From contig NC_041064.1 of NCBI RefSeq assembly GCF_900634775.1, forward strand, positions 1,508,717 to 1,572,716: 64,000 bases of DNA, given 5' to 3'. This document shows positions 6,971 through 61,387 of this stretch, one piece after another. The number at the start of each line of letters is the position of its first letter. Within the stretch, counting starts at the first letter, position 1. The position numbers and the translations under genes are program-made. The notes beneath the pieces were generated by a model. That model worked only from the letters and a program-made list of their open reading frames with translations. It had not been told where the DNA came from and ran no database searches. This DNA is from Gouania willdenowi. Lineage: Eukaryota.

Positions 6971-8059
6971 TCAGCGTTTCCGCTCTCTGTGCAGCAGGTT
7001 AATATCACTGGAGCCAGGCTTCATTATCTGAAAGGTAACAATGAGCTTGATGGACTTTCTGAACCAGGGGTAAAACAGTGCATAGATCAGAGGGTTGAAA
7101 AAGGAGTTCAGGTAAAACAGACAAATCACAAAAGCCAAAGTGGAAGCATTTAAAACAGAGTCTGCTCCAGTAATAGAAACACAAAAATATGGACAGGTGC
7201 ACAGGAGGAAAACCACAATGACAACGCTGATTGTGCTGAAAGCTTTAAGCTCAGATTTCTTTGTGGTGAATTGGGACTCGTGTGCAGGTCTCACAGATGC
7301 AGCATGAGAACGCATAGAATGAGCATGAGACAAAGCCACCACAAACACCCTCAGAGACATCAGTACGATGACAATAACAGGTCCAATAAATGACAGGATA
7401 ATCTCTACAATGCTACCAACATAACTGATAACTACTACACACTCCCCAAGGCACGTGCTGTACTGGCCTGGTTGTTCCAGGTTATCTTTAAGAAGAAAAG
7501 TGTGAGAGATGACAGACATGATCCAGCACAGAGAAACACATACTTTCACTCTGTTTGCTGTAACTTTAGTGGGATACTGCAGAGGTTCACACACTGCCAC
7601 GTAGCGATCCACTGAGAGCAGAACCATTGTTCCTATTGAAGCTGAGGTGAAGATAAAATCCAAATAATAATACACACTACACAACAGTGCCCCAAACAAC
7701 CAACAACCATCAATAAGTGATATTTGGAAGATCATAAGGATGCCCACAAAGAAATCTGAGATAGCCAGAGAGAGGAGGAGGAGGTTGGTGGGAGTGTGGA
7801 GCTTCCTGAAAAGTGAGAGATAAAGAAAAGTCAGATCAGATTTTATGAAAACAGAACCTCCTAAACACTGTGAAAGAATATTTAAATACCTGAAGTGTGA
7901 GATGGAGATGATGACCAGAAGGTTGAGGTTCACAGTCATCACAGAGATGGAGGAGAGGGTGATATAAATCAGCACAGAGACTGAGTGAGGACGCACGATC
8001 CTCCTGCACGATGAGTTAAGATTTGAAAAGCAGAACTCAGCGTCATCAACGGTTTCCAT
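6971..8059 (-). CDS. TAAR-family olfactory GPCR, paralog 1 (inverted copy). Two exons: complement(7890..8059) and complement(6971..7805). Spliced product ~334 aa.
   Basis: 362-aa ORF read-through. TAAR fingerprint NSFFNPLIYALFYPWF. DRY (SVDRYVAVCEPLQYP). C3.25 and D3.32 (YYYLDFIF). It has E5.42 (SIVEIILSFIGP) where the other copies have D. TM6 is CTCPYF. Kozak caaagATGG. Confidence 0.88.
   Translation of the reverse strand: METVDDAEFCFSNLNSSCRRIVRPHSVSVLIYITLSSISVMTVNLNLLVIISISHFRYLNILSQCLGGSVFIKSDLTFLYLSLFRKLHTPTNLLLLSLAISDFFVGILMIFQISLIDGCWLFGALLCSVYYYLDFIFTSASIGTMVLLSVDRYVAVCEPLQYPTKVTANRVKVCVSLCWIMSVISHTFLLKDNLEQPGQYSTCLGECVVVISYVGSIVEIILSFIGPVIVIVLMSLRVFVVALSHAHSMRSHAASVRPAHESQFTTKKSELKAFSTISVVIVVFLLCTCPYFCVSITGADSVLNASTLAFVICLFYLNSFFNPLIYALFYPWFRKSIKLIVTFQIMKPGSSDINLLHRERKR
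7806..7889 (-). other. 84-bp in-frame intron (phase 2) in ICL1 of TAAR paralog 1
   Basis: Minus-strand CAG|GTATTT … polypyrimidine CTTTTCTTTATCTCTCACTTTTCAG|G. If translated it adds 28 aa (RYLNILSQCLGGSVFIKSDLTFLYLSLF) between TM1 and TM2, where TAARs have a very short loop. Confidence 0.8.
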
Positions 8060-8097
8060 CTTTGACCCCTCTGCCTCTCACTCTAATGTTGCACTGA

Positions 8098-8103
8098 TTT
8101 ATA
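8098..8103 (-). promoter_or_regulatory. TATAAA box 44 bp upstream of the TAAR paralog 1 ATG, within the conserved proximal promoter 8060..8400
   Basis: Minus-strand ggttttataaatcagtgcaacattagagtgagaggcagaggggtcaaagATG is identical in all six copies. Confidence 0.5.
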
Positions 8104-8390
8104 AAACCTTTTTTCTTATTGCTACGCCCTCCTTTGATCTGGTAACTTCCTTTTTGAATGAATATTTAGATGATTTGACCTCTGGGTTGTTTTTGCTTAT
8201 TCTGTAAGGTTTTTGAAAAAACCATCCACAAATTCCAATTCCAGAGAAAAGAGAAAATGTTGTGAGCTAAAATGCTCTGCTTAATCCTGTAAAAGGCAAC
8301 TTTAAAAAAATTAAAAATATTGAAGTTCAACAAATGTAAAAAAAAAATTAGCACAACACAATCTAGGACTCGGATGGAAAGTGGAGAATT

Positions 8391-10060
8391 GTGGCGATGG
8401 TGGCGCTGGAACATCTCCAACGAAGACGAAGGAATGTCTCAACGCCGCCGCAGCCGATAGCAGCACCCCCGACGAAGCTAGGGCCCGCGGCAGGAAACGA
8501 CCTCATTGGGCTATTTCACCGGAGCACACTGGGTTATCGCTTTTTTAGTCTTAGTAGATTATGCAACGAGATATTCCAAATCAGTGCCACTGCACACTAT
8601 CTCTGCAAAGAGGCACAGGCACAGTTTCAGGACATTTACCGGGTTGGAATTACAAAAGAAATTCTAACTAACCAGGGCACATTGTTCATATCCCACACAC
8701 TTCAGGAAATATGACTTACTGGGGGTTAAATGTATTCACTGACTGATCACTGACCTATCCCTCTGTTATTTGCAGTGAGGGAGGTTCCCCAGGCCTCCCC
8801 AATTTTTTTCCTTTGAGCTGCTGTACAGCAAGAAACCATGGAGGGTCTTGGACCTGTTAAGAGAAAACTGGGATGAAGGTCCAAGTTCCAGCAAAAATAA
8901 AATACAATACATGTTTAACCTGACCCGTCACGTGATAATCTGCTCCAGGCCCAACAGCGTCAGATGAGCCTGTATGACAGAGCGGCGGAGCTTTGTCACT
9001 TTACACCGGGAGAAAAGGTGTTTGTATTACTCGCTACATCCAATTCTTAATTACTTGCTTAGTGGCAGGGGCCCTTTGTGGTCACACGGCGAGTGAAGTG
9101 GATTATGAGTGAGAGGCGGAGCACGACAGATCTACTACCTCAACCTCCTGGAATGAATGCGCAAGGCAGATCCTGTTTTCCTTGTGTCAGCGATTAAAGG
9201 GAAAGATGAGTTGGGACCTGAGGTACCAAAAACTACGACTCATGCTTCACTTCCCCTTGATGAACATCTCTCACCATCACAGAAAGCAGATGTGTATAAG
9301 TTGCAGGCAAAATTTACGAATGTGTCCTCCCCTCTACCCGGACGTACAACGTTCATTGAACATAAAATAAACATGCACCACGGGTTAACGATAGGTTCTC
9401 TGCCTTATAGTTTACCTGAGCATTAACAGGAAGTAGTGGCGATGTAGCAAATGGTTATAATTGAACAGTTCCACAGCGCATGGAGCAGCCCAATTGTTCT
9501 TGTAGCTTAGAAGGATGGGTCATTGCATTTTTGTGTAGACTATTGTGAACTGAATGAACTATCACGGTTTAATGCATACCCTATGTCCTTGGGGTCGACG
9601 AGCTCCTGGTGGATACCAGTACCAGTTGGGTACTGCTCGCTTTTTTACAATGCTGGATGTAACCATGGGCTACTGCCGATTCCATTGGTTTGTACCAATT
9701 TGTCATGCTTCCTCTTGAGTTGTTCAGTGCTCCTGATGAGTGCTGCGCTCAAACACTGCCTGTGATGACACCTGGGTTGGAACAGTGATGTGAGGGTTGT
9801 TTTATCCCAGCAGGTAATGAGAGTTGATCATCCTGTGGCCTACATTAGCCAGAAACTGCCAGAAAGAGACCATGCACTGTTCTATAGACTCCATAGACTT
9901 TTGTGTTCCATCCCCGTTGTTGAGTGTCTGCTGCAAGTGCTGTGAAGCACAGTTTCTTGCTCTCATAGGCCTCTCCAGCCAAGTTCTCCCATGGGACTGT
10001 AAGCTCTATGATGTAAACAGTCTTGTGAGAGGGCCCAGAATACCAAGTCTGACCTGAGGA
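8391..10060 (+). mobile_element. Decayed Ty3/gypsy-type pol fragment with the integrase upstream of reverse transcriptase (Gmr1-like domain order)
   Basis: INT core at 8500..8714 (…FFSLSRLCNEIFQISATAHYLCKEAQAQFQDIYRVGITKEILTNQGTLF…), with the INT C-terminal piece up to ~9100. About 60 bp later comes the RT N-terminal region at 9157..9426 (…LSPSQKADVYKLQAKFTNVSSPLPGRTTFIEHKINMHHG…). The RT core follows at 9523..9765 (…FCVDYCELNELSRFNAYPM…). All are on the + strand, and the same order recurs at 53100..54950. Confidence 0.55.
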
Positions 10061-11799
10061 TGGTGGTCGCTATCTCAACCTTGTTGTGCCTCCAGGTGTA
10101 AAAGCCTTGTGTAAACTTTGCCTAACATCAAAATGTGTTTGAGAGATGCTAGAGCTGGGCAGAGAGGACAGGTGAATATTCTTGCCATACCATTGATGGA
10201 GGTTATTTGGAGATGGGAGCTGGGAGCACATCATACGTAGCTCTGATGATGAAGCTGATTTTGCTTCCATTTTCCACAGCTACTTCCAGCTGAGCGTTCT
10301 CCTCTCCAGGCCTTCTCATCTCGTCCATTGACCCTGCTTGTCACGAGAGACAGCCTTTCCACTTCTTTCAGCTTCCTCCTGACGGAATACCTCCTTAACC
10401 ACCATTTTCTCCTCTTTAATGTTAAGGACTTATGCCAGGTTAGTTTACTTGCTGTAAGGCCAAAGCCTCCTCTTCCCTGTTGAACATGCCTCACAATATT
10501 GTTGTGCCTTATGGCAATGTAGCATGTTGCACCGCATCTAATGGTTTCCATTTCATTCTCAGGGGAGGTGCCATATTGCTGATGGTTTGGCCTCTGGAGA
10601 CCTCCAGGGTCATCTGGAGTCTCACTTTAGAGCACTTGTACTCTCGGTGAGGCTTGTGAAAGGCAACTCAAGGACTCCTTTACCATAGAGACCAATGTTC
10701 TTCAGACAGCGTGGGACCCCAAGCCATTTCTTCATGTAAGAAGTGATTGTTCGCTCCATCTTCTCCACAGTTGTTAGAATGTCTGGTGAATTCTTGTAGA
10801 GCTTATACGGTAGTCCTTTCAGCCCAGGGGATGATGCTGATCTTACACGCCTACAGTATTCTCTACTTCCTTCTATTTTAGAGGGTCAGTCTATTTAGAA
10901 TTCAGGTGATTGTATAATTGGGATGTCACGTGTGATACCAAGCTGTTTGTGGATTTTTATGTCATGGTAAACCTTTTCCACATGCTCCTCCAGCTGCTGC
11001 CTTAGAATTTTCAGGGTTCCACTTTTTTCCTTAGTGAACAGATCCTTGACAAACTTGAAGGGTTTTTATAGAAACATGTTCTTGCGGATTTTTCTTCCTC
11101 TTGCAAAGTTTCCTCAAGTTCTCTGCTCTATGTAAGGTTGCGAACCGGCTTTTGATGTCTCCATGGAGTAGTGATACCATCTCTCTTCATCAGAGGCTTT
11201 ATTCTATGGTTTTTTCAGATGCCTTCTTTCTCGAACCAGTCTTTAGATCTCTTGCTGTCTCTTGGATTTTGCTGCTGCTGCTTTGTCCCTTCTTACATTT
11301 ACACCAAAGCGAGTTTCTCTGTACTGGTAAATAATAGCCCCCATCTCTTTCAGCTTTTTATTTGCTGTGCAAGGAGGGACTGGCAGTTTGCATGAGGGAA
11401 AAAGCTCTTTTTGTCCGTCAAAAGCCACAAAAACAAGCAATCTGTTTGTGGAGCTGTGTCTAGAACTCTACACTTAGCAGACTTATTACAACATTAAACT
11501 ACGAACAGATTGTATTCTGCAAACTTTTTGACATTTGTTGAACTTCTATGATTTTTTTTCTCTAAAAGTTGTCTTTTACAGGATTAATCAGAGCATTTCA
11601 GCTCACAACATTGTCACTTTGCTCTGGAATTGGAAATTTTGTAAAAGTTGCAGCTTTTTTTTATTTTTTATTGTGGATGGTCTTTTCAAACAACCTTACA
11701 GAATAGGCAAAAACAACCCAGAGGTCAAATCATCTAAATATTCATTCAAAAAGGAAGTTACCAGATCAAAGGAGGGCGGAGCAATGAAAAAAAAGGTTT

Positions 11800-11805
11800 T
11801 ATAAA
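11800..11805 (+). promoter_or_regulatory. TATAAA box 44 bp upstream of the TAAR paralog 2 ATG, in the conserved proximal promoter (~11540..11843)
   Basis: ggttttataaatcagtgcaacattagagtgagaggcagaggggtcaaagATGG. Confidence 0.5.
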
Positions 11806-11843
11806 TCAGTGCAACATTAGAGTGAGAGGCAGAGGGGTCAAAG

Positions 11844-12932
11844 ATGGCAACCGTTGATGACGCTGAGTTCTGCTTTTCAAATCTTAACTCATCGTGCAGG
11901 AGGATCGTGCGTCCTCACTCAGTCTCTGTGCTGATTTATATCACCCTCTCCTCCATCTCTGTGATGACTGTGTACCTCAACCTGCTGGTCATCATCTCCA
12001 TCTCACACTTCAGGTATTTAAATATTCTTTCACAGTGTTTAGGAGGTTCTGTTTTCATAAAATCTGATCTGACTTTTCTTTATCTCTCACTTTTCAGGAA
12101 GCTCCACACTCCCACCAACCTCCTCCTCCTCTCTCTGGCTATCTCAGATTTCTTCGTGGGCATCCTTATGATCTTCCAAATAACACTTATTGATGGTTGT
12201 TGGTTGTTTGGGGCGCTGTTGTGTAGTGTGTATTATTATTTGGATTATATCTTCACCTCAGCTTCAATAGGAACAATGGTTCTGCTCTCAGTGGATCGCT
12301 ACGTGGCAGTGTGTGAACCTCTGCAGTATCCCACTAAAGTCACAGCAAACAGAGTGAAAGTATGTGTTTCTCTGTGCTGGATCATTTCTGTTCTCCATCA
12401 GTCTTTTCTTCTTAAAGATAACCTGGAACAACCAGGCCAGTACAGCACGTGCCTTGGGGAGTGTGTAGTAGTTGTCAGTTATGTTGGTAGTATTGTAGAT
12501 GTTATCCTGTCATTTATTGGACCTGTTATTGTCATCGTACTGATGTCTCTGAGGGTGTTTGTGGTGGCTTTGTCTCATGCTCATTCTATGCGTTCTCATG
12601 TTGCATCTGTGAGACCTGCACACGAGTCCCAATTCACAACAAAGAAATCTGAGCTTAAAGCTTTCAGCACAATCAGCGTTGTCATTGTGGTTTTCCTCCT
12701 GTGCATTAGTCCATATTTTTGTGTTTCTATGACTGGAGCAGATTCTGTTTTAAATGCTTCCACTTTGGCTTTTGTGATGTGTCTGTTTTACCTGAACTCC
12801 TTTTTCAACCCTCTGATCTATGCACTGTTTTACCCCTGGTTCAGAAAGTCCATCAAGCTCATTGTTACCTTTCAGATAATGAAGCCTGGCTCCAGTGATA
12901 TTAACCTGCTGCACAGAGAGCGGAAACGCTGA
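11844..12932 (+). CDS. TAAR-family olfactory GPCR, paralog 2. Two exons: 11844..12013 and 12098..12932.
   Basis: Fingerprint NSFFNPLIYALFYPWF, DRY, D3.32 (YYYLDYIF), D5.42 (SIVDVILSFIGP), TM6 CISPYF. Intact ORF. Confidence 0.9.
   Translation: MATVDDAEFCFSNLNSSCRRIVRPHSVSVLIYITLSSISVMTVYLNLLVIISISHFRYLNILSQCLGGSVFIKSDLTFLYLSLFRKLHTPTNLLLLSLAISDFFVGILMIFQITLIDGCWLFGALLCSVYYYLDYIFTSASIGTMVLLSVDRYVAVCEPLQYPTKVTANRVKVCVSLCWIISVLHQSFLLKDNLEQPGQYSTCLGECVVVVSYVGSIVDVILSFIGPVIVIVLMSLRVFVVALSHAHSMRSHVASVRPAHESQFTTKKSELKAFSTISVVIVVFLLCISPYFCVSMTGADSVLNASTLAFVMCLFYLNSFFNPLIYALFYPWFRKSIKLIVTFQIMKPGSSDINLLHRERKR
12014..12097 (+). other. 84-bp in-frame intron of TAAR paralog 2
   Basis: CACTTCAG|GTATTTAAAT…CTCACTTTTCAG|GAAGCTCCAC. 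Coordinates were verified by counting. Confidence 0.8.
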
Positions 12933-13324
12933 CAAAGCAGCCTTTGTTCTCCATCATCATCTTTAATTTGACATTAAAAAATGAATGTGTCATCAAATCA
13001 AATATTGCTGCAGGAGAAACACACTGACTCCTTAAGTTTGTCAAGGACATCATGTATTTATCAGGGCCCGACCACCAAAGGTGATGTGAATGCCCTATTG
13101 TTCCCGTAAGGATTTTTCTTATTCTAAATATTATAATTTTACCGACAATTTACTTTGATTTTTTTTCTAATTTAGATTGTTTACAGTCAGGCCCCTAATG
13201 CTTTGAACAATGATACAATTTCCAGCATTTATCAGTGCAGTAAAGTTTAAACCAATGATTGTTTAATTCTGCTGCAGTCCAGCTTGTTTTCAGTGTCTCT
13301 TAGCTTTAACACAGTTGAATGTAT

Positions 13325-14469
13325 AAGCCTTATCACACTCTCGCTCTGGTTCAATTCTTCCGCGATAGGTCAAAGGTCAAGAAGGATAAACTTGCCATGG
13401 CTGACGGTGTAGGAAGCGAGTCTGACAGAGATTTAAATATTTTTTGCCATTGTAGCGTTGATTCCTTAAATATTGTTTTTGGGCAAATGTGGCATCAGTC
13501 TCCAAGGCAGAAAGACCTACTTAGCTGCTAAAGCTAATGCTGCTAAGGCTAATGCTGCTAAAGCTAATGCTGCACACGAGCTGAAAATAAGTTTTTTCCT
13601 GACGTTTCAACAGTGACTCAGGTTATTGTCACATTTTGTGAACATGAATCGGCTGTTGACATGAAAGTGTTGTTTCACTTAATCAGAATCAGAAAATACT
13701 TTATTAAACACAGAGGGGTTCAATAAAGTATAAGTTTTGTATAAATGGCAAAGAGTGGTGTATTAAAAAAAGCCACACAAATAATGATAATTATACACAC
13801 GCAGAAAAAAGGAGCAATACGACACAAATTAAATGTGCAAATGAAACGACCTGTCCATCGTGCATTTCCTTCAACTTTGTAAAGTTAATTAATATAATAG
13901 CTTAATAAAAAAATAATCATATGGACCTGGTTAATGAATGGTATACCTCATAAATGTACTTTTTCAAAGTAAGAACTGTAATACCTGCCTGATCCACATC
14001 CTTGGTGTCATATAATGGTTCGTTTATATACATGTACATGTCTGTGATATGGAATTGTTAATCATGAAAACATTAAGATTAGACCAAGTCACTTTCCTTG
14101 TATTTTTTAAACTCTACTTGGCAGTAAAAATATTCTGAAACAAACATAGTGTTTTATTATTACAACAGAGCAAGGCAAAAGATTACGCTGCTCATTTTTT
14201 AAAATTTTTTTTTGCGACTCCTCGTCTATTAAAAGCACAAATACTTGTTGAAACTTATATGTTGAAAGCCAATCTAAATGTGTGACGGTCTGAGTGTTGC
14301 ACTTGCAATATATTGAATGTCAGATAGATTAGGCCTACTTTTATTGTACCAAAAGTCAGCTGAAAATCTCAGCGCATAGCACAAACAGCGTCGTGTTGAC
14401 ATTTATATCCCTCTTGACCTATGACCTCCGCTGATCGCGCATGTGCACTTCCAGAGTGTGAAAAGGCTT
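13325..14469. mobile_element. Non-autonomous (MITE-like) DNA transposon of ~1.15 kb with ~17-19 bp terminal inverted repeats and a 2-bp AT/TA target duplication. Present only in the duplicons of paralogs 2 and 3.
   Basis: Termini AAGCCTTATCACACTCTCG … AGAGTGTGAAAAGGCTT. The empty site gaatgtAT|tgagcag is seen in the other four duplicons (e.g. 39865..39880), and the filled site is gaatgtAT[element]ATtgagcag. The element is AT-rich with no ORF. Confidence 0.65.
13524..13571. repeat. 15-bp minisatellite (GCTGCTAAAGCTAAT)n, ~3 copies, inside the MITE-like element
   Basis: Direct tandem repeat. The orthologous position in the next duplicon has ~6-7 copies. Confidence 0.8.
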
Positions 14470-15177
14470 ATTGAGCAGAACTTTAGACGTTCAGCTGAAC
14501 TGTTTAGGTGAATGCACTTTAGATGTATTTATGTTGGAGCAGAGGGTCATCAAGAACATGCAGAACAGTCACCCTCAGGAACCAGGAATGAGTCAACCTG
14601 GTTCTAAAAGTCCAAAGTAAATCAGAAATGCTGCCTGGCTCTTTTTTAAAGGTGTGTTTGATTCCTGGTGGTGATGTACGGAGCCTATATGTTAAATATA
14701 ACATCACTGTCTCTTTATTAGACCTGATTGTGCTTAATGAGTTGATTGTCTTCATGTCCCTATAATAACTGACATCTCTGTGTTTTTGACAATATTTGGA
14801 GATTATTATTGTATTTCAGTCTTTATGTAAATGTTCCATCAGCCTGCGCACTGTAACGCTGTTTGTAGCTCTGAGCTTTTTTCACATTGGTCTCTAAATA
14901 AACGTTGCTTCATGAAACCTTGTCCAGCAGAGTTTTCATCTTATTTAACAATGGACTGAACAGGGAAAAGACAAAGGACAGTTTGTAATAAATCCTGAAG
15001 CCCAAATATTTACAGATGTAAAGCTCCTCCTACATTTTACATGTGAGCTACTTTTTACTTTTACTCGAGTAGATTTTTACACCAGTAACTTTACTTTTAC
15101 TTTAAGTACATTTTTAATCAAAGTAACAATACTTTAACTTAAGTAGATTTTTTTTCTGTACTCTCTCCACCCCTGGA

Positions 15178-15191
15178 CACACACACACGCA

Positions 15192-15223
<32 letters not shown>

Positions 15224-15230
15224 CACCCAC
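15178..15230. repeat. (CA)n / (CACG)n microsatellite
   Basis: cacacacacgcacgcacgcacgcacgcacgcacacacacacacaca. Confidence 0.9.
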
Positions 15231-15664
15231 CCCCTGTCACTCTCAATAATCAACTTACAAGCAAACGCTAGCATCAGGCGAACTACCAGAGAGGTAGTAT
15301 ATTTCCCTGCTTTGAAATGGAAGAAATGTAGGATGAGGGATTGACTTTCTCTGCTGTTGATATTTTACATTTCAGGTGCTGTGTCATGATCGTGGTGCTT
15401 CCAAGTCAGGTTATATCACTTTTGCAAAGCTAGCACGTCATGCTTTTTTTAGTTTGTTTTGTTTTTTGTTTTGTGAAGCGTGAAATACTCCCACATGTTT
15501 GAGGATTTCAGTCAAACTTTTTTTCTCTGTGTCGGTCATGTTTCTTTTTAAAATATGATTTTTTTAAACTTTGTTGACAAAGCTCTGCAGGTGAAGCAAA
15601 CGGCTCTGCAACATAGGGAGTAGGGTGGTTCACAAAAATCATTTTCACCAAATTTTTCCAGATC

Positions 15665-17520
15665 GCTTTTTGCTTTGTTCCAATTAACATTGTTAACCCC
15701 CAGCATCGGGGGTGGTTGGTCTGCTGGTTGGGTGCGCCGGGCCTCGTGGGCGCTGTTCCGAGGCGGGGGTTCCCTGGGGGTGGGCCTTTGGTTGGGGCGT
15801 CTTGGGACGCGTTCTCCTGCCATCCGCCTGGGAGCTGGCTGCGGTTCGGTGTGGCGCCGCACTGCCTTTGGCAGCTTCGGGGGGGTGTCTCGTGTCGGTG
15901 TGTGTGTGGCCTCCGTGGGGAGGGGGGGGGCTCTGCTGGTGGCACTTAGTGTCGGGTGGCGGAACCTGGCGGGACCTGGCTGGGGGTGCTTGGGTTCGCC
16001 CGATTATTGGTTGGTGGGTGGCGGGATGGCCCTGTTGGGCGGCTGATAGCGTCCTCTCTGGTCGGGGGGGCCGGGGCTGCCTCCCTGTAGAGGGTTTTTG
16101 CATCATCGTGCTCTGCGGGCCTGTGCTGGGCTGATGTGGGCGCGGACTTCTCTCCTGCCCGGCTGCTCTCTGTTGCGGCGGGGGGGCAGCATCGTGCTGT
16201 GGTGCGTCGGGGGTCGCCCCCTGGACTCCTGGGGGGTGTGGCTGGTGCCTGGCCCTGCCTGGGGGGTGGTAGTGCCGCCGTGCCCCGTGGGGTCTCCGGC
16301 CGTGCTGCTCGGCGCGTCCCTGGGGTCCGCTGTGCCGCGAGCCCGTCTGCGCCATCTACCCTCTCCGGTGGCCCGTCGTGTGGACGGGCCGGGCTCGCAC
16401 CAGACAGGCCTCCTAAATGAACACCTCACTTCACTCCCAGCTGGTCTGGCTCACTTACTTGGTGCACCACACACCCATACCCAACCCTTGGGGGGCTGGA
16501 TGATGGGGCTGGGGGTGGAGGGTGCCACCGCCTATGCTACTAAATAGTGGCACGGGGGTGGCATTCCCACCTCAAATTGCCCTACCAATCCCTCCAATTT
16601 TAATAGCACCTTAAAACACCACCCCCGGAGGGTGCGACCACAACTTCCACCCTCCGGATCTATTGCACCACATACACATATATACACAGAGGTTAGACAG
16701 GGAGCACTGGGCTTGGCCGGTCCTGGCGGGGGTCATCCGGGGTGGGTGGTGCGGGCTGCGCTCTTGCATACCAGTGGGTGCGGCGTGGGGTGGCCCCTGC
16801 TTGGGCGGTACCCGAATTACCGCCTCTAGTTTGTGCATGCCGGTGTGGCGGTCTGGCTGGGCCCTTGGGGGTGAGTGGGGCGGGGGTGCGAACTTTAGCA
16901 ATTACTAAGGCGCATTGCGCTGGGGGTATAAAAAAAAAAGTGACCTGGGGGGCTGGGTTAACCTAGCCCCCCAAACCCTAACCCGCTGACGAATGCACGC
17001 CGGCTGCCCGTTCGTCGCGGCTCTGGTCGTTTGCTGAGCATGGGCCTTGGCCCCTCTGTTGGGGTCTCGGGGGAGGGGGCTCTCCGGGCCCTCCCCTTGA
17101 GGGATTGGGTGCGGGGGTGGTGGGGTGGATGTCGCCTTGGGGTTGGGAGTGGGGTGCGCCGGTTCTTCGGCTCCTAGGTGCTTTCTCGGGTGTGTATGTG
17201 GGGGCAGTGGCTACCTCTCGACTTGGTGTCTTGAGGGTGTCTGGGGGGGCTCGGCCAGTTGGGGGTTGCCTGGGCTCCCTGGGTTTGCAGTGGTGGTTTC
17301 TTGCACATACATCTGTCTACGATGCGCTAGCATGCCTTGGACTGTGGAATAAAACTTGTAGTGGGCTTAACTTCAGACACGTTGATCCCAAATACCTATT
17401 TCAGGTATTACCACTCACTCCTTCCCTCTGTCCACAGCCACCACCATTATAGTTAAGCCTCACGCCTACAACTTCACATCTCACTCCACTTTACAATAAT
17501 CAACTCTTCCCCACCCTTCC
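15665..17520 (+). repeat. Copy 2 of the GC-rich G+T-skewed repeat (~1.85 kb)
   Basis: Near-identical to 29475..31400. It contains CCCTAACCC at ~16970 and the hairpin aaatacctatttcaggtatt near its 3' end. The long ORFs on both strands (e.g. 15693..16355, -) are Pro/Gly/Arg-rich compositional artefacts. Confidence 0.55.
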
Positions 17521-20500
17521 ATTTCTCTACCTTGAATCTCTCCTGTCTGCTCCCTTCATCTCAGCACAGTTCTCACAGTCTGTTGTCTGATGACATGGAA
17601 ATGATCTTGTAGAGATCTGATTCAGAAACAAAGTTCCTAGGTGGTAGCAGTTATGGAGAGAGGAGGGGACGCAGTGTCATTCGGCACAAACATCCTGGAG
17701 AATAGAGAGATAAGCCAGCCTTGACACAACTGGTTGTATGGGGGAGCCACTGAAAATAACAATTGTTTTCGGCCAGGCTAAGTACAATTTCTGTCAGCCT
17801 TGAGTTCTCTGGGTCTCGGGGTAATATATCCAATATGGTGGCCATTAACTTTTGAGCTGGGCTGTCAACTTCTCCAAGTTAGATTCCATCCCGCGTAGAA
17901 GATCAAAAGTTTCATCCTGCTTGCTTTTTAGTTCCTTTATTGCATGAGTCTAAGTGTTAAGAGCCCTGCACACTCCATTAGTCATGACAGGCAGTCTTCC
18001 CAAAACAGCTGCCAACGTTGTGTGAACTTTGCAATGAATCAGAAAACTGGCAGCTCCAAACAGCAGAACACCTGTTATCATCAAATTATGTAAACATCTT
18101 CAATATCCTCAATGGAAAGGATCTGCCATTCCTGCCAGGAGTCCATTGTGTATCCGGCTGTGAACGTTCTGTCAGGACAGGCAGGCTTTCCTCTGCTCAT
18201 TCTTTTTGTCAAAAAAATGGGGTTGATTCTATTGAGAGACCAGCTGATCAATTCCATAATTTCAGTTTTGGGTAGCAATGCAGAGATAAGCTCCTATTAG
18301 ATTCTGACATAAGAGAGTACAAGACAAAAGAGCAGAAAGAAGGGCTGATAAGGGCAGAGGGGAGCAAGGTAAGAAGATGATGTTCAGATGAAGAGTTTTG
18401 CTTATGGGGCAACACCCACCAAGCACAGTGCTTCTAATAATTATGATCAAGAGACTGGAGGCAAAACCAGCAATATCTCACATGCAAGAATAAAGAAGCA
18501 AGGCTCATCTGAAGTTCTTTACCCTTCATTGACAACAACACAGGACAGAGAGGGTGTATCCAATCTTCAGGATGCTGCATCTTTCACAATGACAGCAAAG
18601 TGCTTGGGACATGATGTCAACAATTACTCAATCAATTCAGCAGCTGTGCATAGAGCTCACTATAGGTACTGAGCAAAGGTGGCATCTCAGTGGGAGTCTT
18701 AAGTTTTTCGTGATCCATCTTTTCATTGGTATGGGAAACTTTTGCCTCAAGCCTGCCAGCGCAACCATGACGACAGGGATGCAGTCATTGCCAGTGGGGT
18801 AGATTTTGAAGAACTTTTGGGTGTCCCAGTGACAACTGATGGGTCTGGAAAATAGGCGAGTGATATAAAATAAGTTTGTTTAGTATAAATAGAGAGAGAC
18901 TTTTATTGACCATACTTACCTTTACATTATTTAAGTTCTGTTTCATAATATTTCATGAGATGTCTTACTATGGGATGTTGCCTCTGCTACATTCCTCAGA
19001 ATACCTATTTCACTTTGCCAATCTTGATTGGCTGATGAAACGCATTGGTCCGATGGGAGAACCTCCCACCTCCTACAGGAGGAGGGGACGGACAGGTGCG
19101 TGTCATTCTTAAACCTCTTCTGCTTTCAGCTACCTTTCTTTTTTCCTGCCGACAAACTCTGGCAGGGCTAATGGCTGGCAGCCTCTCACTACAGTGACAG
19201 CTCTGCTGCTAGCTCTTGGCCGTAAGACCAGAGCTCCCAGACCCCAGCTTACCATAGCTGCCGTTCCAGACCACAGCACACATTTCCCCCGGGCTCCTGC
19301 AGACGTTGGTCTCCCTCCTGGGCCCACAACTTGGTGTCTGGCCCGGACCCAGCTCCTATACCATGGTGTACAAGCTGCGGCCCAGCTGCTGTTCAGAGGC
19401 GACGCTGTCCTGCATCCTTGCAAGCACCTTTGCTAGCGCGAGCTAAACCACCTGCTCTCCTGCCTGTATCAGCAGCCATGAAAGACGAGGCTCTTCTGAC
19501 CGAGGGATTGGGATGCATCGTGGCTCGTCTTTGTCCATGCAGTGGAAAATTATTTATCAAGGACGGACACAAGACCTGCTCCGGGTGCCTGGGCTTTGAG
19601 CACGCCCGGATGGCTATCGAATACCCGGCGTCCTGCAAGCACTGTGCCGCATTCAGAGCCCGGTACCTCCCCTGGAGACTGGTGCGGCTTCTGAGACCCG
19701 AGCAAGGCCCCTCTTCCCCCTCATCTCTGGCCTGCCATTGTCGTGGAAACCACCAGGTCCTGCTACGAAGGGAAGAAGCTGCCTCTCTCCAGAGGCGCTC
19801 TGAGACAGACTCTCCCTTTCTTCCCCGAGCTTCTCGAGAAAGTGGTTCGCCTCTGGCAGACACGCCCGTTCACTGGGAGGGCCCCGGTTGCAGGCTTCTC
19901 TATCCTTGACTGCGAGGCGATAGAGGCCCGTAGACTGCTCAGGATGCCACAGGTGGAACCGCTCGTAGCTGTGCACCTGCTCCCATGTCGGCCTTCTGTG
20001 TCTTCACGGAGACCCATGCTACCGTCGAGATGGGACTGTCTGCAGTCGGACCTGTCCCGTAGGACTTACACAGCCGCTGGCCTCTCGGTCAGGGCCATGA
20101 ATGTCCTCTCCCTCCTCACCGCCTACTAAGGCTGAACTTTGTGAGGATTTCACTGCGTCCCATAACCCTGTAATAATAGAGTAGTTGTCTATGGTGACGA
20201 ATGTGTGCCTCTGAACCCAAGCCTGCTCACTACAGACTATGGAGAAATTCATGGGCAATATGGTGATCCAGGAGCGTGCTCGCTGGCTCAATCTTGCTAG
20301 GCTGACAGACGCCGAAAGACGCCCTATCTTCAATGCAGCAGCGCTGCAAAGCGAAGAAGAGGGAGGATGAGCACTGCTGCACCAGCGCAGCAGTCCCAGC
20401 GCGCACAGGCACGCAGAATGAAAAAGTTGGCCTGACCTCTTTCTTCTCCCACCTCGTGTCAAAAACAGTGATGTGCTCATAGCTCACGCCTCTGGGCAAA

Positions 20501-20521
20501 TGGCCAGAGGCATCCCTAAAT

Positions 20522-21933
20522 GTGAAAGCGTTGTCTGCCACAATAAACAGGGTGATAGCGGGAGACATTATCTCTACTCGAAGGGAGGCTTTAGCCTCTT
20601 CCTGTCAGAGACGGCGCTCCTCTTGTGATCACTTTGTCCCCCAGAACAAGCAGTGCATGCTTGCTCCGAGGGGTATGGCGCTGGCAGCAGGGCTCCTCAT
20701 CTGTGGGAACATTACCTCTGGGGTCGTGCGGCCCGCTGCTGCCAGGGGGCTCTGCCATTGCGTGGGCAAGCCACCTGCGGCTATGCGGAGGCACCATCTT
20801 GTCGCTCTTGTGTCTGCATGCAGCCTGCCCTCAGGAGAGGATGCCACCACTCTGCTGACGGTGCCTCTCTCAGTGAGGGCACCGGAGCACCTGTCCTCTC
20901 TTTCCCTGAGGATAGACAGGAGGGGGCTTGCAGTCCCGCCCTGGGTGTTATGGATGTTATCGAAGGATTACAAACTGCAGTTTGCATCTGTCCCTCCCGG
21001 TTTCGGCGGCATAGTGCACTCCCGGGCCTGGGGAGTTTTGGGCCACATTTTACACAAGGAAATTTCTTCTCTGTTGCACAAAGGAGCTGTGTCGGAATCT
21101 GCTGTCGCAGGCGGAAGGCACGGTTTTCCATCCACGACCACAGAGTCTGGTACTGTGGGCCTGGCCCCTGAGTGGCACAATCTGTTGGCTATAGGGTTAT
21201 CACAGGACGTTATCTCTACCATACAGAGCACTCAGGCCTCCTCTACTAGGTCTTTTAATGACTTTAAGTGGAGGGTATTTAAGAACTGGTGTCTCCAGGG
21301 AGGCCACGTCCCTTTCCAGTGCCTGGTGGGTGTGATTCTGTCATTCTTGCAGGGCCTGATTGACAAGTGCAAAGCCTTTTCCATGGGGAAAGTGTATTTG
21401 GCGGCGATCGCCACCTGTCATTTGGGCTTTGCGGACAAACCGGCGCGTCAGCATCTGCTGATATGCAGCTTTATGAAGGGGGCGTGCAGGCTCCTCCCCG
21501 TGTCCACATTGATGGTTCCACCATGGGATCTGGCGGTGGTTCTGGAGTGTCTTAAGGGACCCCCGTTTGAACCGATGGGTGAGACAAACCTAAAGTTCGC
21601 CTCTCTTAAAACTGTCTTGTTACTGGCTCTGGCTTCAACCAAGAGGATCAGTGACATCCACGTGCTCTCGGTTCACCCGTCGTGCACTCAGCTTTCCTCA
21701 GGTGACGCAAGGATCATTCTGAGACCCAACCTTTGTGCCGAAGGTGGTGGGCTCATGTTCTCCCATTGACCTGCTGGCCTTTTCTGCCTCACAGGGTGAT
21801 CAGCGGCCTCACTTATTGTGTCCTGTTTGTGCGATCCATACTTATATGGATAGGACAAGGACCCTCAGGAGGAGCAAACCAGCTGTTCGTCTCCTGGGCC
21901 AACTGTCATAAGGGGAAGCCTCTGTCAAAGTAA
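20522..21933 (+). pseudogene. Tyrosine recombinase (integrase-like) gene of the DIRS/Crypton-type element, frameshifted. Its C-terminal catalytic part is split by the LINE insertion at 22060 and resumes at ~24230..24310.
   Basis: …WDLAVVLECLKGPPFEPM…LKTVLLLALASTKRISDIHVLSV… (box-I Arg context). …LCPVRAIHTYMDRTRTLR…LFVSWAN…(K)PLSK… After the insertion comes …QDICAPAS.SSPHTFVRCYMLDV…, the motif that carries the catalytic Tyr in DIRS-type YRs. Confidence 0.6.
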
Positions 21934-22059
21934 CGCCTGTCATACTGGGTGGTGGAGGCTATTGCTTTGGCTTACTCGAATCAGGGTCTGCAGCCGCCTA
22001 TGAGTCTGCGTGCACACTCGACTTGGGGACTTGCCACATCCTGGGCCTTGTTTAGGGGA

Positions 22060-25520: not shown

Positions 25521-25654
25521 TTTAATCAGGTAAATTATTTTCAAACAACCTTACAGAATAAGCAAAAACAACCCAGAGGTCAAATCATCTAAATATTAAT
25601 TCAAAAAGGAAGTTACCAGATCAAAGGAGGGCGGAGCAATGAAAAAAAAGGTTT

Positions 25655-25660
25655 TATAAA
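25655..25660 (+). promoter_or_regulatory. TATAAA box 44 bp upstream of the TAAR paralog 3 ATG
   Basis: Same conserved promoter sequence as the other copies. Confidence 0.5.
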
Positions 25661-25698
25661 TCAGTGCAACATTAGAGTGAGAGGCAGAGGGGTCAAAG

Positions 25699-38352: not shown

Positions 38353-38391
38353 ATCAGTGCAACATTAGAGTGAGAGGCAGAGGGGTCAAAG

Positions 38392-48600: not shown

Positions 48601-48737
48601 ATTGGAATTTGTGGGTGGTCTTTTCAAACAACCTTACAGAATAAGCAAAAACAAACCAGAGGTCAAATCATCTAAATATTCATTCAAAAAGGAAGTTACC
48701 AGATCAAAGGAGGGCGGAGCAATGAGAGAAAAGGTTT

Positions 48738-48743
48738 TATAAA
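48738..48743 (+). promoter_or_regulatory. TATAAA box upstream of TAAR paralog 5
   Basis: Conserved promoter. Confidence 0.5.
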
Positions 48744-48781
48744 TCAGTGCAACATTAGAGTGAGAGGCAGAGGGGTCAAAG

Positions 48782-49870
48782 ATGGCAACCGTTGACGACG
48801 CTGAGTTCTGCTTTTCAAATCTTAACTCATCGTGCAGGAGGATCGTGCGTCCTCACTCAGTCTCTGTGCTGATTTATATCACCCTCTCCTCCATCTCTGT
48901 GATGACTGTGTACCTCAACCTGCTGGTCATCATCTCCATCTCACACTTCAGGTATTTAAATATTCTTTCACAGTGTTTAGGAGGTTCTGTTTTCATAAAA
49001 TCTGATCTGACTTTTCTTTATCTCTCACTTTTCAGGAAGCTCCACACTCCCACCAACCTCCTCCTCCTCTCTCTGGCTATCTCAGATTTTTTTGTGGGCA
49101 TCCTTATGATCTTCCAAATATCACTTATTGATGGTTGTTGGTTGTTTGGGGCGCTGTTGTGTATTGTGTATTATTATTTGGATTATATCTTCACCTCAGC
49201 TTCAATAGGAACAATGGTTCTGCTCTCAGTGGATCGCTACGTGGCAGTGTGTGAACCTCTGCAGTATCCCACTAAAGTCACAGCAAACAGAGTGAAAGTA
49301 TGTGTTTCTCTGTGCTGGATCATTTCTGTTCTCTATCAATCTTTTCTTTTTAAAGATAACCTGGAACAACCAGGCCAGTACAGCACGTGCCTTGGGGAGT
49401 GTGTAGTAGTTGTCAGTTATGTTGGTAGCATTGTAGATGTTATCCTGTCATTTATTGGACCTGTTATTGTCATCGTACTGATGTCTCTGAGGGTGTTTGT
49501 GGTGGCTTTGTCTCATGCTCATTCTATGCGTTCTCATGTTGCATCTGTGAGACCTGCACACGAGTCCCAATTCACCACAAAGAAATCTGAGCTTAAAGCT
49601 TTCAGCACAATCAGCGTTGTCATTGTGGTTTTCCTCCTGTGCATTAGTCCATATTTTTGTGTTTCTATGACTGGAGCAGATTCTTTTTTAAATGCTTCCG
49701 CTTTGAGTTTTGTGATTTGTCTGTTTTACCTGAACTCCTTTTTCAACCCTCTGATCTATGCACTGTTTTACCCCTGGTTCAGAAAGTCCATCAAGCTCAT
49801 TGTTACCTTTCAGATAATGAAGCCTGGCTCCAGTGATATTAACCTGCTGCACAGAGAGCGGAAACGCTGA
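48782..49870 (+). CDS. TAAR-family olfactory GPCR, paralog 5. Exons 48782..48951 and 49036..49870.
   Basis: Distinct residues: ISLIDG, CIVYYYLDY, ISVLYQSFLFKDN, ADSFLNASALSFVIC. Confidence 0.9.
   Translation: MATVDDAEFCFSNLNSSCRRIVRPHSVSVLIYITLSSISVMTVYLNLLVIISISHFRYLNILSQCLGGSVFIKSDLTFLYLSLFRKLHTPTNLLLLSLAISDFFVGILMIFQISLIDGCWLFGALLCIVYYYLDYIFTSASIGTMVLLSVDRYVAVCEPLQYPTKVTANRVKVCVSLCWIISVLYQSFLFKDNLEQPGQYSTCLGECVVVVSYVGSIVDVILSFIGPVIVIVLMSLRVFVVALSHAHSMRSHVASVRPAHESQFTTKKSELKAFSTISVVIVVFLLCISPYFCVSMTGADSFLNASALSFVICLFYLNSFFNPLIYALFYPWFRKSIKLIVTFQIMKPGSSDINLLHRERKR
48952..49035 (+). other. 84-bp in-frame intron of TAAR paralog 5
   Basis: Coordinates verified. Confidence 0.8.
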
Positions 49871-50615
49871 CAAAGCAGCCTTTGTTCACCATCATCATCT
49901 TTAATTTCATATAAAACATCAAATGTCAAATCAAATGTTGCTACAGGAAAAACACACTGACTCCTTAAGTTTGTCAAGGTCACAATGTATTTATTTGCTA
50001 TTTTAGATTGTTTACAGTCAGGCCCCTCATGCTTTGAACAATGACACAATTTCCAGCATTCATCAGTGCAGTAAAGTTTAAATCAATGATTGTTTAATTC
50101 TAAACCAGGTTAATGTTGCTCATTTCTATGTGTCCTTCACTGATTATCAGTGTTTGTTCCTGGTTTTTGAGAGCTGCTGTCCAGCTTGTTTTCAGTGTTT
50201 CTCAGCTTTAACACACCTGAATGTATTGAGCAGAACTTTAGACGTTCAGCTGAACTGTTTAGGTGAATGCACTTTAGATGTATTTATGTTGGAGCAGAGG
50301 GTCATCAAGAACATGCAGAACAGTCACCCTCAGGAACCAGGAATGAGTCAACCTGGTTCTAAAAGTCCAAAGTAAATCAGAAATGCTGCCTGGCTCTTTT
50401 TTAAAGGTGTGTTTGATTCCTGGTGGTGATGTACGGAGCCTATATGTTAAATATAACATCACTGTCTCTTTATTAGACCTGATTGTGTTTAACAGTAGAA
50501 GTCCCAATGACGGGTCATTTTATCTTCATACTGTACCTATGGAGCCCACAGAAGGGTCACTTGAGCTGAAGGTTTTTACCTAACACCTTCTCCTAAGCTG
50601 AAAACATGCGCTTTT

Positions 50616-54950: not shown

Positions 54951-54959
54951 AAAACTATA

Positions 54960-60100: not shown

Positions 60101-60260
60101 ATTTCGGGTCACTTTTCTCTGGAATTGGAATTTGTGGGTGGTCTTTTCAAACAACCTTACAGAATAAGCAAAAACAACCCAGAGGTCAAATCATCTAAAT
60201 ATTCATTCAAAAAGGAAGTTACCAGATCAAAGGAGGGCGGAGCAATGAGAGAAAAGGTTT

Positions 60261-60266
60261 TATAAA
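60261..60266 (+). promoter_or_regulatory. TATAAA box upstream of TAAR paralog 6
   Basis: Conserved promoter. Confidence 0.5.
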
Positions 60267-60304
60267 TCAGTGCAACATTAGAGTGAGAGGCAGAGGGGTC
60301 AAAG

Positions 60305-61387
60305 ATGGCAACCGTTGATGACGTTGAGTTCTGCTTTTCAAATCTTAACTCATCGTGCAGGAGGATCGTGCGTCCTCACTCAGTCTCTGTGCTGATTTAT
60401 ATCACCCTCTCCTCCATCTCTGTGATGACTGTGAACCTCAACCTGCTGGTCATCATCTCCATCTCACACTTCAGGTATTTAAATATTCTTTCACAGTGTT
60501 TAGGAGGTTCTGTTTTCATAAAATCTGATCTGACTTTTCTTTATCTCTCACTTTTCAGGAAGCTCCACACTCCCACCAACCTCCTCCTCCTCTCTCTGGC
60601 TATCTCAGATTTCTTCGTGGGCATCCTTATGATCTTCCAATTATCACTTATTGATGGTTGTTGGTTGTTTGGGGCGCTGTTGTGTATTGTGTATTATTAT
60701 TTGGATTTTATCTTCACCTCAGCTTCAATAGGAACAATGGTTCTGCTCTCAGTGGATCGCTACGTGGCAGTGTGTGAACCTCTGCAGTATCCCACTAAAG
60801 TCACAGCAAACAGAGTGAAAGTATGTGTTTCTCTGTGCTGGATAATTTCTGTTTTCTATCAATCTTTTCTTCTTAAAGATAACCTGGAACAACCAGGCCA
60901 GTACAGCACGTGCCTTGGGGAGTGTGTAGTAGTTGTCAGTTATGTTGGTAGTATTGTAGATGTTATCCTGTCATTTATTGGACCTGTTATTGTCATCGTA
61001 CTGATGTCTCTGAGGGTGTTTGTGGTGGCTTTGTCTCATGCTCATTCTATGCGTTCTCATGTTGCATCTGTGAGACCTGCACACGAGTCCCAATTCACCA
61101 CAAAGAAATCTGAGCTTAAAGCTTTCAGCACAATCAGCGTTGTCATTGTGGTTTTCCTCCTGTGCATCTGTCCATATTTTTGTGTTTCTATGACTGGAGC
61201 AGACTCTGTTTTAAATGCTTCCACTTTCGTGATGTTTCTGTTTTACCTGAACTCACTTTTCAACCCTCTGATCTATGCACTGTTTTACCCCTGGTTCAGA
61301 AAGTCCATCAAGCTCATTGTTACCTTTCAGATAATGAAGGATGGCTCCAGTGATATTAACCTGCTGCACAGAGAGCGGAAACGCTGA
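60305..61387 (+). CDS. TAAR-family olfactory GPCR, paralog 6. Exons 60305..60474 and 60559..61387. It has a 2-codon in-frame deletion in TM7.
   Basis: 360-aa ORF. …NASTFVMFLFYLNSLFNPLIY… against …NASTLAFVMCLFYLNSFFNPLIY… in the others. MKDGSSD against MKPGSSD. TM6 CICPYF. D3.32 and D5.42 retained. Confidence 0.85.
   Translation: MATVDDVEFCFSNLNSSCRRIVRPHSVSVLIYITLSSISVMTVNLNLLVIISISHFRYLNILSQCLGGSVFIKSDLTFLYLSLFRKLHTPTNLLLLSLAISDFFVGILMIFQLSLIDGCWLFGALLCIVYYYLDFIFTSASIGTMVLLSVDRYVAVCEPLQYPTKVTANRVKVCVSLCWIISVFYQSFLLKDNLEQPGQYSTCLGECVVVVSYVGSIVDVILSFIGPVIVIVLMSLRVFVVALSHAHSMRSHVASVRPAHESQFTTKKSELKAFSTISVVIVVFLLCICPYFCVSMTGADSVLNASTFVMFLFYLNSLFNPLIYALFYPWFRKSIKLIVTFQIMKDGSSDINLLHRERKR
60475..60558 (+). 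other. 84-bp in-frame intron of TAAR paralog 6
   Basis: Coordinates verified. Confidence 0.8.

Follow-up and report, generated by a model that had tools for sequence, protein, structure and literature searches.

The cluster of TAAR genes in the clingfish Gouania willdenowi raises the question of which amines its products detect and whether, as proposed in the initial annotation, they are diamine receptors of the zebrafish TAAR13c type. The analyzed window, a stretch of 64,000 nt, contains six intact TAAR genes, five on the forward strand and one inverted; a tblastn search across this window found no further TAAR copies or fragments. The genes, herein numbered by position, are copy 1 (6971..8059, reverse strand; XP_028291866.1) and, on the forward strand, copies 2 (11844..12932; XP_028291867.1), 3 (25699..26787; XP_028291868.1), 4 (38392..39480; XP_028291869.1), 5 (48782..49870; XP_028291871.1), and 6 (60305..61387; XP_028291872.1). 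All six ORFs match the Pfam 7tm_1 family (PF00001, E = 4e-41 to 5e-39), and amino-acid identity among the copies is 94-98%. After splicing, all six products are identical to these G. willdenowi RefSeq proteins; thus, the genes are not new but already annotated. The six ORFs had been described as a tandem array at these positions. Their positions were confirmed; because copies 1 and 2 are arranged head-to-head, however, the array is tandem only in part.

The 362-aa ORFs correspond to intact genes but not to the true products. Each of them spans an 84-nt in-frame, stop-free GT..AG intron in intracellular loop 1, and reading through this intron adds 28 spurious residues (YLNILSQC...LSLFR). The spliced products are 334 aa long, except for that of copy 6 (332 aa), which has a two-residue (6-nt) deletion at the ECL3/TM7 boundary. 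Exon 1, intron, and exon 2 occupy positions 7890-8059, 7806-7889, and 6971-7805 in copy 1; 11844-12013, 12014-12097, and 12098-12932 in copy 2; 25699-25868, 25869-25952, and 25953-26787 in copy 3; 38392-38561, 38562-38645, and 38646-39480 in copy 4; 48782-48951, 48952-49035, and 49036-49870 in copy 5; and 60305-60474, 60475-60558, and 60559-61387 in copy 6. The intron has a polypyrimidine tract and is located at the Phe56-Arg57 junction, in copy 2 between the second and third bases of the Arg57 codon. The 28 intron-encoded residues have no counterpart in TAAR13c, where the HMMER alignment splits at query residues 59/84, and are missing from the seven other percomorph homologues aligned; they are kept in one Gouania prediction, P0002. 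The position of the intron agrees with that of the family-A TAAR intron, which lies in intracellular loop 1 near codon 55-57 and splits an aromatic-basic dipeptide, mostly Phe-Arg (PMC4415300). The exon boundary found here is inside the Arg codon (AG|G), whereas phase 0 is given in that paper.

In all six copies, the start codons, ORFs, GT..AG splice sites, DRY and NPxxY motifs, TAAR fingerprint, and both disulfide cysteines are intact. The best PDB matches (HMMER) are all TAARs, ranking above histamine H2 and beta-adrenergic receptors; the top ones are zebrafish TAAR13c, TAAR13a, TAAR13d, and TAAR13e (PDB 9m2s, 9m3s, 9m0x, and 9m40; E = 1e-58 to 1e-55). The TM7 fingerprint NSxxNPxx[YH]xxx[YF]xWF is found in every copy, with the common form NS(F/L)FNPLIYALFYPWF. 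The narrower pattern noted initially, NSxxNPxxYxxxYxWF, also fits all six, but only four copies contain the exact string quoted for it, NSFFNPLIYALFYPWF; in copies 4 and 6 the sequence is NSLFNPLIYALFYPWF, with the motif NSLFNP in copy 4. An AlphaFold2 model of low confidence (pLDDT 56.6) shows seven helices and helix 8. The copies share these motifs because of their very recent common ancestry and therefore do not represent six independent observations.

Two acidic residues are the basis for assigning a ligand class. Counted from R3.50 (residue 124), Asp is found at position 3.32 (D106, spliced numbering) in all six copies, within the segment YYYLD(Y/F)IF that has Phe in copies 1, 4, and 6 and Tyr in copies 2, 3, and 5. 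Counted from P5.50 (residue 199), Asp is found at position 5.42 (D191) in copies 2-6, and Glu in copy 1. The codons for positions 3.32 and 5.42 are located at 7658-7660 (GAT) and 7403-7405 (GAG) on the reverse strand in copy 1 and, on the forward strand, at 12243-12245 and 12498-12500 in copy 2, 26098-26100 and 26353-26355 in copy 3, 38791-38793 and 39046-39048 in copy 4, 49181-49183 and 49436-49438 in copy 5, and 60704-60706 and 60959-60961 in copy 6. D106 and D191 stand opposite D112 and D202 of TAAR13c, both in the HMMER alignment with the PDB chain and in a MAFFT alignment with curated TAARs, and the initial assignment of both positions, including Glu in copy 1, was thus borne out. Among the 116 closest database homologues that were aligned, 83 have both D3.32 and D5.42, with many percomorph species represented; the pair is also found in 15 of 68 TAARs of the mandarin fish (PMC12560584). 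The double-Asp signature is widespread in percomorphs. None of the 116 homologues has Glu at 5.42, as copy 1 does, or at 3.32, as does a seventh Gouania paralogue located outside the window.

The kinship of these genes with TAAR13c was contradicted by phylogeny. In a neighbour-joining tree with bootstrap, the only tree method used, which included the curated sequences of PMC8890504, the six Gouania copies are monophyletic (bootstrap 100), forming a species-specific expansion. They fall inside neoteleost clade III with TAAR22-31 of medaka, stickleback, and pufferfish (bootstrap 99) and, within it, in the TAAR24/25/26/30 group (bootstrap 77), nearest to stickleback TAAR25/26. Thus, the genes are members of the neoteleost-specific clade III (class III of Hussain, family A of Azzouzi). 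In the same tree, the TAAR13 sequences of zebrafish and catfish group apart, and the Gouania genes are in the sister clade, from which TAAR13 is excluded with bootstrap 100. Membership in the TAAR13 subfamily is also contradicted by the two-exon structure of all six copies, since zebrafish TAAR genes, TAAR13 included, are all single-exon (PMC4415300). The RefSeq name "TAAR13c-like" was assigned automatically and is no sign of orthology.

The nearest named relatives in the tree, stickleback TAAR25/TAAR26 and TAAR24 and medaka TAAR30, are 60-67% identical to the Gouania receptors and have the same two exons with a loop-1 intron at the Phe-Arg junction. D3.32 and D5.42 are also found together in TAAR24, TAAR25a, TAAR25k, and TAAR30b, and TAAR25 resembles the Gouania receptors in having an aliphatic residue in place of W6.48, Cys at 7.40, and Tyr at 7.43. 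The Glu residues at 5.42 in copy 1 and at 3.32 in the seventh paralogue distinguish Gouania from this stickleback and medaka group. With TAAR13c, the Gouania receptors share T3.36, S3.37, F6.52, S6.55, and Y7.43; with TAAR13 receptors, the TM7 fingerprint and a similar C-terminal PxSSDINL tail. However, the pocket differs from that of TAAR13c, with Ile or Thr instead of W6.48, Cys or Phe (Phe in copy 6) instead of W7.40, Tyr or Phe instead of L3.33, and Val or Ile instead of T5.43; Gly takes the place of the gating site D6.58, and positions 6.51 and 7.39 also differ.

Di-cation (diamine-type) TAARs are defined by the presence of Asp at both 3.32 and 5.42 and by a response to di-cationic ligands that relies on both acidic residues (Li et al., 2015). 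The double-Asp zebrafish receptors TAAR13a, TAAR13c, TAAR13d, TAAR13e, and TAAR14d bind di-cations, each of them depending on both Asp residues (PMC4695389). Their ligands vary: TAAR13a is histamine-selective, and TAAR13e and TAAR14d detect agmatine. TAAR14d, the only clade III double-Asp example outside TAAR13 with a ligand, responds to agmatine weakly (EC50 ~100 uM). Like the Gouania receptors, it has lost both W6.48 (Leu) and W7.40 (Ile). Unlike them, it is single-exon and belongs to a branch other than the neoteleost clade, and its ligand is not cadaverine or putrescine. We found no ligand in the literature for TAAR25-type or other intron-containing neoteleost TAARs, a search that covered the deorphanisation table in its columns other than those for clade III. 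By the published rule, di-cation sensing of a diamine, agmatine, or histamine type is the best-supported function that can be inferred for the Gouania receptors. The cadaverine/putrescine specificity proposed initially is therefore one option only, as histamine and agmatine receptors are double-Asp as well. Copy 1 lacks the Asp5.42 of the definition; since the substitution D202E abolishes the diamine response of TAAR13c (PMC4914996), this copy cannot be assumed to be equivalent to the others.

We favor, with reasonable though not high confidence, the explanation that the locus is a recently expanded six-gene chromosomal cluster of clade III olfactory TAARs that has kept both anchors and whose likeliest ligands are di-cations. 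Each gene would have a short, conserved promoter region of its own, and splicing of the loop-1 intron would yield a class-A GPCR. The receptor is predicted to act in the cilia of olfactory neurons, signalling via Golf and cAMP as other olfactory TAARs do. The two carboxylates would bind one amine at TM3 (D3.32) and the other at TM5 (D5.42). Retention of both anchors makes water-borne ligands with two cationic groups most likely, such as the diamines putrescine and cadaverine, agmatine, histamine, or polyamines.

Alternatively, these may be olfactory monoamine receptors that use one Asp only, the classical D3.32 or the non-classical D5.42, the other being an inherited relic or serving structure or gating. 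Most members of clade III detect monoamines via D5.42 alone, and catfish TAAR13g groups with aromatic-amine responders. Mammalian TAAR6 and TAAR8 (D3.32 and D5.43) respond only to monoamines (PMC8890504); having a second Asp is therefore not enough, with the reservation that these two receptors have it at 5.43 rather than 5.42. Moreover, D3.32 is lost in the same-group paralogues stickleback TAAR25f (Ala) and Gouania P0006 (Asn) and P0031 (Gly), and D5.42 in TAAR25d and TAAR25h (both Asn); thus, a gene can be kept without one or the other anchor. Nevertheless, we consider monoamine sensing rather unlikely: both Asp residues are present in the majority of the closest homologues and in five of the six copies, and all the zebrafish receptors with this pair tested so far need both and prefer di-cations.

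The surroundings of the genes are also duplicated. The large unit containing copy 2 and a retroelement-rich spacer (11683..22000) is repeated at 25538-36198 with 90-99% identity and a period of ~13.9 kb, and the unit around copy 5 (46040..50060) is repeated around copy 6 at 57175-61587 with ~97.7% identity. The duplicon cores are 96-98% identical; the spacers, of 10.4-13.9 kb, differ in length and content and are full of LINE-type retroelement fragments. Each of the six genes is preceded by a conserved 5' flank of ~165 bp (11680..11843, forward strand, for copy 2), in which TATAAA lies 44 nt ahead of the ATG (8098-8103 on the reverse strand for copy 1, then 11800-11805, 25655-25660, 38348-38353, 48738-48743, and 60261-60266). 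As a candidate proximal promoter, this flank is part of every duplicon.

The six copies differ at 48 codons. Of the 32 sites that vary in amino acid, 28 fall within the receptor's extracellular half (Fisher p = 3e-7), including 3.33, 5.42, 5.43, 6.48, 7.39, and 7.40. Since the paralogues differ mainly at pocket-lining positions, anchors included, they probably differ in ligand tuning. For the intracellular half dN/dS equals 0.27, compared with 0.81 for the extracellular half. These values do not prove adaptive diversification, because no dN/dS is above 1 and dS too is higher in the pocket half (0.051 against 0.019 in the other half). In their site patterns the copies are mosaics of one another, and sequence exchange among them seems to be ongoing. 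The same differences could be neutral drift among recent copies that are partly or wholly non-functional, unexpressed, or decaying, in line with a gene-wide pairwise dN/dS of 0.39-1.0, which is high for a GPCR, and with the crowding of the spacers by retroelement fragments. We regard this as improbable, as ORFs, splice sites, and motifs are intact and the promoter-like flank is kept in all six copies, the intracellular dN/dS is low, and substitutions avoid the G-protein-facing half, contrary to the prediction of neutral decay. That haplotypes or collapsed reads were laid in tandem during assembly is very improbable despite the near-identical cores and an intron 100% identical in all copies, given the differing codons, the deletion in copy 6, the unequal spacers, the inverted copy, the mosaic patterns expected of real paralogues exchanging sequence, and the presence of the same six models in RefSeq on a 39-Mb scaffold.

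For the favored di-cation receptors, a wider role can be proposed only tentatively. Whether the loss of TAAR13 in most percomorphs is compensated was left open by Dieris et al. (2021). In neoteleosts, double-Asp TAAR25-type receptors might have taken the place of these lost TAAR13 diamine sensors, with the Gouania array serving as graded "molecular rulers". If so, the combinations D3.32/D5.42, D3.32/E5.42 (copy 1), and E3.32/D5.42 (seventh paralogue) would shift the spacing of the carboxylates, changes at 3.33, 5.43, 6.48, 7.39, and 7.40 would also reshape the pocket, and the preferred chain length of di- or polyamines would vary from copy to copy. A comparable percomorph repertoire, with tandem-duplicated class I and class III TAARs, is described for the mandarin fish Siniperca chuatsi, where the 15 double-Asp receptors were proposed as sensors of necromones (death odours) (PMC12560584). 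Subfamilies in that paper are named after zebrafish TAAR14-20, not TAAR22-31.

Six TAAR genes are encoded in the window, copy 1 on the minus strand (ORF 6971-8059) and copies 2 to 6 on the plus strand (11844-12932, 25699-26787, 38392-39480, 48782-49870, and 60305-61387, respectively). The ORFs are 360-362 amino acids long, and each of them gives a match to the rhodopsin-type 7TM family (E about 1e-40). No fragments or pseudogenes besides these copies were found by tblastn in the whole window. In a comparison with the solved structure of zebrafish TAAR13c, copy 2 aligned in two pieces (residues 4-59 to TAAR13c 8-63 and 84-356 to 60-339), leaving about 28 residues of the ORF (YLNILSQC...LSLFR) without a counterpart in TAAR13c. 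The DNA at the break, CACTTCAG|GTATTT...CACTTTTCAG|GAAGCT, is an 84-nt GT..AG intron with a polypyrimidine tract. This intron is in frame and stop-free, so a plain ORF scan runs through it; in copies 1 to 6 it is located at 7806-7889, 12014-12097, 25869-25952, 38562-38645, 48952-49035, and 60475-60558, respectively. Splicing fuses His-Phe-Arg with Lys-Leu-His-Thr-Pro, recovering the conserved ISHF(R/K)xLHTPTN motif, and yields proteins of 334 amino acids (332 in copy 6). Each spliced product is identical to a Gouania willdenowi RefSeq protein named 'trace amine-associated receptor 13c-like' (XP_028291866, XP_028291867, XP_028291868, XP_028291869, XP_028291871, and XP_028291872 for copies 1 to 6). 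This identity independently confirms the splice model and fixes the species; the genes are thus already annotated. A translated insertion was rejected because the 28 residues, kept in one Gouania UniProt prediction (P0002), are missing from TAAR13c and the other percomorph homologues aligned and would fall in intracellular loop 1; 28 codons without a stop are unremarkable, the chance being roughly one in four by our own estimate. Cloning of intron-containing TAARs requires cDNA or spliced constructs, since translation of a genomic clone can run on across the intron.

Azzouzi et al. (PMC4415300) regard an intron that splits Phe-Arg near codon 55-57, in intracellular loop 1, as the hallmark of family A within percomorph class III; the TAAR genes of zebrafish and mammals consist of one exon. 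The Gouania intron lies at Phe56-Arg57. A bootstrapped neighbour-joining tree was built with the curated TAARs of Guo et al. 2022 (data S1; PMC8890504). In it, the six copies formed a single group (bootstrap 100), joined by another Gouania gene, P0006 (bootstrap 100). They were placed in the neoteleost clade with TAAR22-31 (bootstrap 99) and, inside it, in the TAAR24/25/26/30 group, adjoining stickleback TAAR25/26 (bootstrap 77). Zebrafish and catfish TAAR13 were left out of the clade containing the Gouania genes (bootstrap 100). Class II, TAAR13 included, is missing in most neoteleosts (PMC12560584, PMC8032801). Despite the RefSeq name, TAAR13c orthology of the cluster is therefore contradicted by both gene structure and phylogeny; 'TAAR13c-like' labels in fish genomes are no proof of orthology. 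The cluster represents a species-specific expansion within a percomorph TAAR subfamily that is already known, is widespread, and retains the di-cation motif; in itself it is an ordinary chemoreceptor expansion.

The anchor residues were numbered in the spliced protein. R124 of the DRY motif, as 3.50, places D106 at 3.32 and C99 at 3.25, and P199, as 5.50, places D191 at 5.42. D106 and D191 lie opposite D112 and D202 of TAAR13c in the HMMER alignment to this receptor and in a MAFFT alignment with 37 curated TAARs. Thus, the initial annotation had correctly assigned Asp to 3.32 and to 5.42, the latter being Glu (GAG) in copy 1. Its TM7 fingerprint fits all six copies as a pattern, but the quoted NSFFNP reads NSLFNP in two of them. 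The toggle-switch Trp6.48 (CWxP) is replaced by Ile or Thr at residue 260, varying between the paralogues; throughout neoteleost clade III and in zebrafish TAAR14, this position is taken by Val, Leu, Ile, or Phe. In the Gouania copies, Cys or Phe stands in place of Trp7.40.

The double aspartate is not unusual in this branch. Asp at both positions was found in 83 of the 116 closest alignable database homologues, from many percomorph species, as well as in stickleback TAAR24, TAAR25a, and TAAR25k and medaka TAAR30b (MAFFT alignment) and in 15 of 68 mandarin fish TAARs (PMC12560584). Single-anchor losses are scattered: Ala at 3.32 in TAAR25f, Asn at 5.42 in TAAR25d and TAAR25h, and Asn at 3.32 in Gouania P0006. 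From these frequencies, carriers, and losses, the double Asp is a subfamily trait that is occasionally shed.

The cadaverine response of TAAR13c requires D3.32 and D5.42, and other zebrafish receptors with this pair detect di-cations in dependence on both Asp residues: histamine for TAAR13a, putrescine for TAAR13d, agmatine for TAAR13e and, weakly, for TAAR14d (Li et al. 2015, PMC4695389). Since the zebrafish two-aspartate receptors detect di-cations, di-cation ligands are predicted for the Gouania copies. The closest functional precedent is TAAR14d, in which W6.48 and W7.40 are also absent. Beyond the anchors, the pocket residues common to Gouania and TAAR13c are only T3.36, S3.37, F6.52, S6.55, and Y7.43, whereas the two differ at 3.33, 5.43, 6.48, 6.51, 7.39, and 7.40 and at the 6.58 gating site. 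Receptors with D3.32 and D5.43 respond to monoamines only (PMC8890504). No ligand for any receptor of the TAAR24/25/26/30-type neoteleost group was found in the literature, as far as the accessible texts extend. It is reasonable to infer, by analogy with zebrafish, that the Gouania copies are diamine receptors; cadaverine or putrescine as the specific ligand is a more tentative prediction. The initial annotation's reading of the array as a candidate diamine receptor cluster is partly supported. An AlphaFold2 model of copy 2, built on a 54-sequence alignment, was of low confidence (pLDDT 56.6, pTM 0.48), and its helix boundaries alone were used. Literature searches turned up neither a paper describing the zebrafish TAAR13 cryo-EM structures (PDB 9m2s and related entries) nor one on the TAARs of Gouania.

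Copy 1 is inverted, head-to-head with copy 2, and the five plus-strand copies are spaced by 10.4-13.9 kb. Two duplicated blocks were found: copy 2 with its spacer (11683-22000) recurs around copy 3 (25538-36198), and the region of copy 5 (46040-50060) recurs around copy 6 (57175-61587). The copies are mosaic. In the four-gamete test, performed on each ORF with 160 nt of 5' flank and 120 nt of 3' flank (6811-8219, 11684-13052, 25539-26907, 38232-39600, 48622-49990, and 60145-61507), 141 of 231 informative site pairs failed. The six copies share one and the same intron sequence (100 % identity), and exon 1 varies at 5 of 170 columns, exon 2 at 58 of 835, and the 160-nt 5' flank at 11. This distribution suggests homogenisation of the 5' gene part by gene conversion. 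The mosaic sites, together with the identical intron and near-invariant exon 1, indicate that gene conversion or unequal crossing-over mixes the copies. Because of this exchange, a simple duplication tree is not meaningful, and dS (about 0.03) is no clock for the duplications.

Protein identity among the copies is 94-98 %, with 48 variable codons, 32 of them with an amino-acid change. The extracellular half, which binds the ligand, accounts for 28 of these 32 residues (Fisher p = 3e-7). Among the 28 are 2.61-2.63, 3.26, 3.33 (Tyr or Phe), 4.52-4.61, 5.42, 5.43, 6.48 (Ile or Thr), 6.49, 6.54, 6.56, extracellular loop 3, 7.39, and 7.40. By the Nei-Gojobori method, pairwise dN/dS is 0.39-1.0; computed separately for the two halves, the ratio comes to 0.81 on the extracellular side and 0.27 on the intracellular side. 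This contrast and the clustering of changes in the pocket half argue against the possibility that the copies are pseudogenes. The pattern fits retuning of the pocket while the G-protein side stays constrained. Positive selection is not claimed, since dN/dS exceeded 1 in no pair or partition and dS is also raised in the pocket half.

A seventh paralogue, XP_028291865.1 (P0127), falls in the same 90 % protein cluster as copies 1-6 and is not encoded in the window. Look-ups of the neighbourhood outside the window returned no record for this protein or for copy 6, and we infer its genomic position solely from accession-number order. Its anchors are E3.32 (YYYLEYIF) and D5.42, reversing the D3.32/E5.42 arrangement of copy 1. 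With D/D in copies 2-6, the family therefore holds three anchor-pair types. Glu at either position was not seen among the 116 aligned database homologues. Substitution of Asp by Glu at either anchor abolishes the TAAR13c response (PMC4914996). The swaps may represent natural variation in charge-charge spacing, and they may equally mark copies that no longer sense diamines. Cadaverine and putrescine trigger decay avoidance in fish. Most spiny-rayed fishes, a group that comprises about half of all fish species, lack the TAAR13 subfamily, the only receptors for these two amines that are well characterised; whether class III compensates for this loss was asked by Dieris et al. (PMC8032801). The cluster is a compact natural panel of seven near-identical receptors, differing almost only in the ligand pocket and including a natural Asp-to-Glu swap at each anchor. 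Such a panel could show whether the zebrafish two-aspartate rule predicts ligands in another TAAR branch and whether class III took over diamine sensing once most percomorphs lost TAAR13.

The spacers hold remnants of non-LTR (LINE-type) retrotransposons, recognised by domain content as minus-strand ORFs with endonuclease/exonuclease/phosphatase and reverse-transcriptase domains (454-1494, 23073-23939, 42261-42986, and 43142-43795). Two further minus-strand ORFs, 4717-5409 and 44333-45097, encode related coiled-coil proteins of no clear family (about 89 % DNA identity). Related long plus-strand ORFs, 20522-21769 and 35068-35808, follow copies 2 and 3 within the duplicated, GC-rich spacers; neither has a Pfam match, and they are probably a piece of a repeated element co-duplicated in the 13.9-kb event. 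All six copies share a nearly invariant 5' flank of about 165 bp. No O/E-type olfactory promoter motifs were found in this flank by sequence scan, only TATAAA, 44 nt before the ATG (8098-8103 on the minus strand for copy 1; 11800-11805, 25655-25660, 38348-38353, 48738-48743, and 60261-60266 for copies 2 to 6). Each duplicon carries, in this TATAAA-containing flank, a candidate core promoter.
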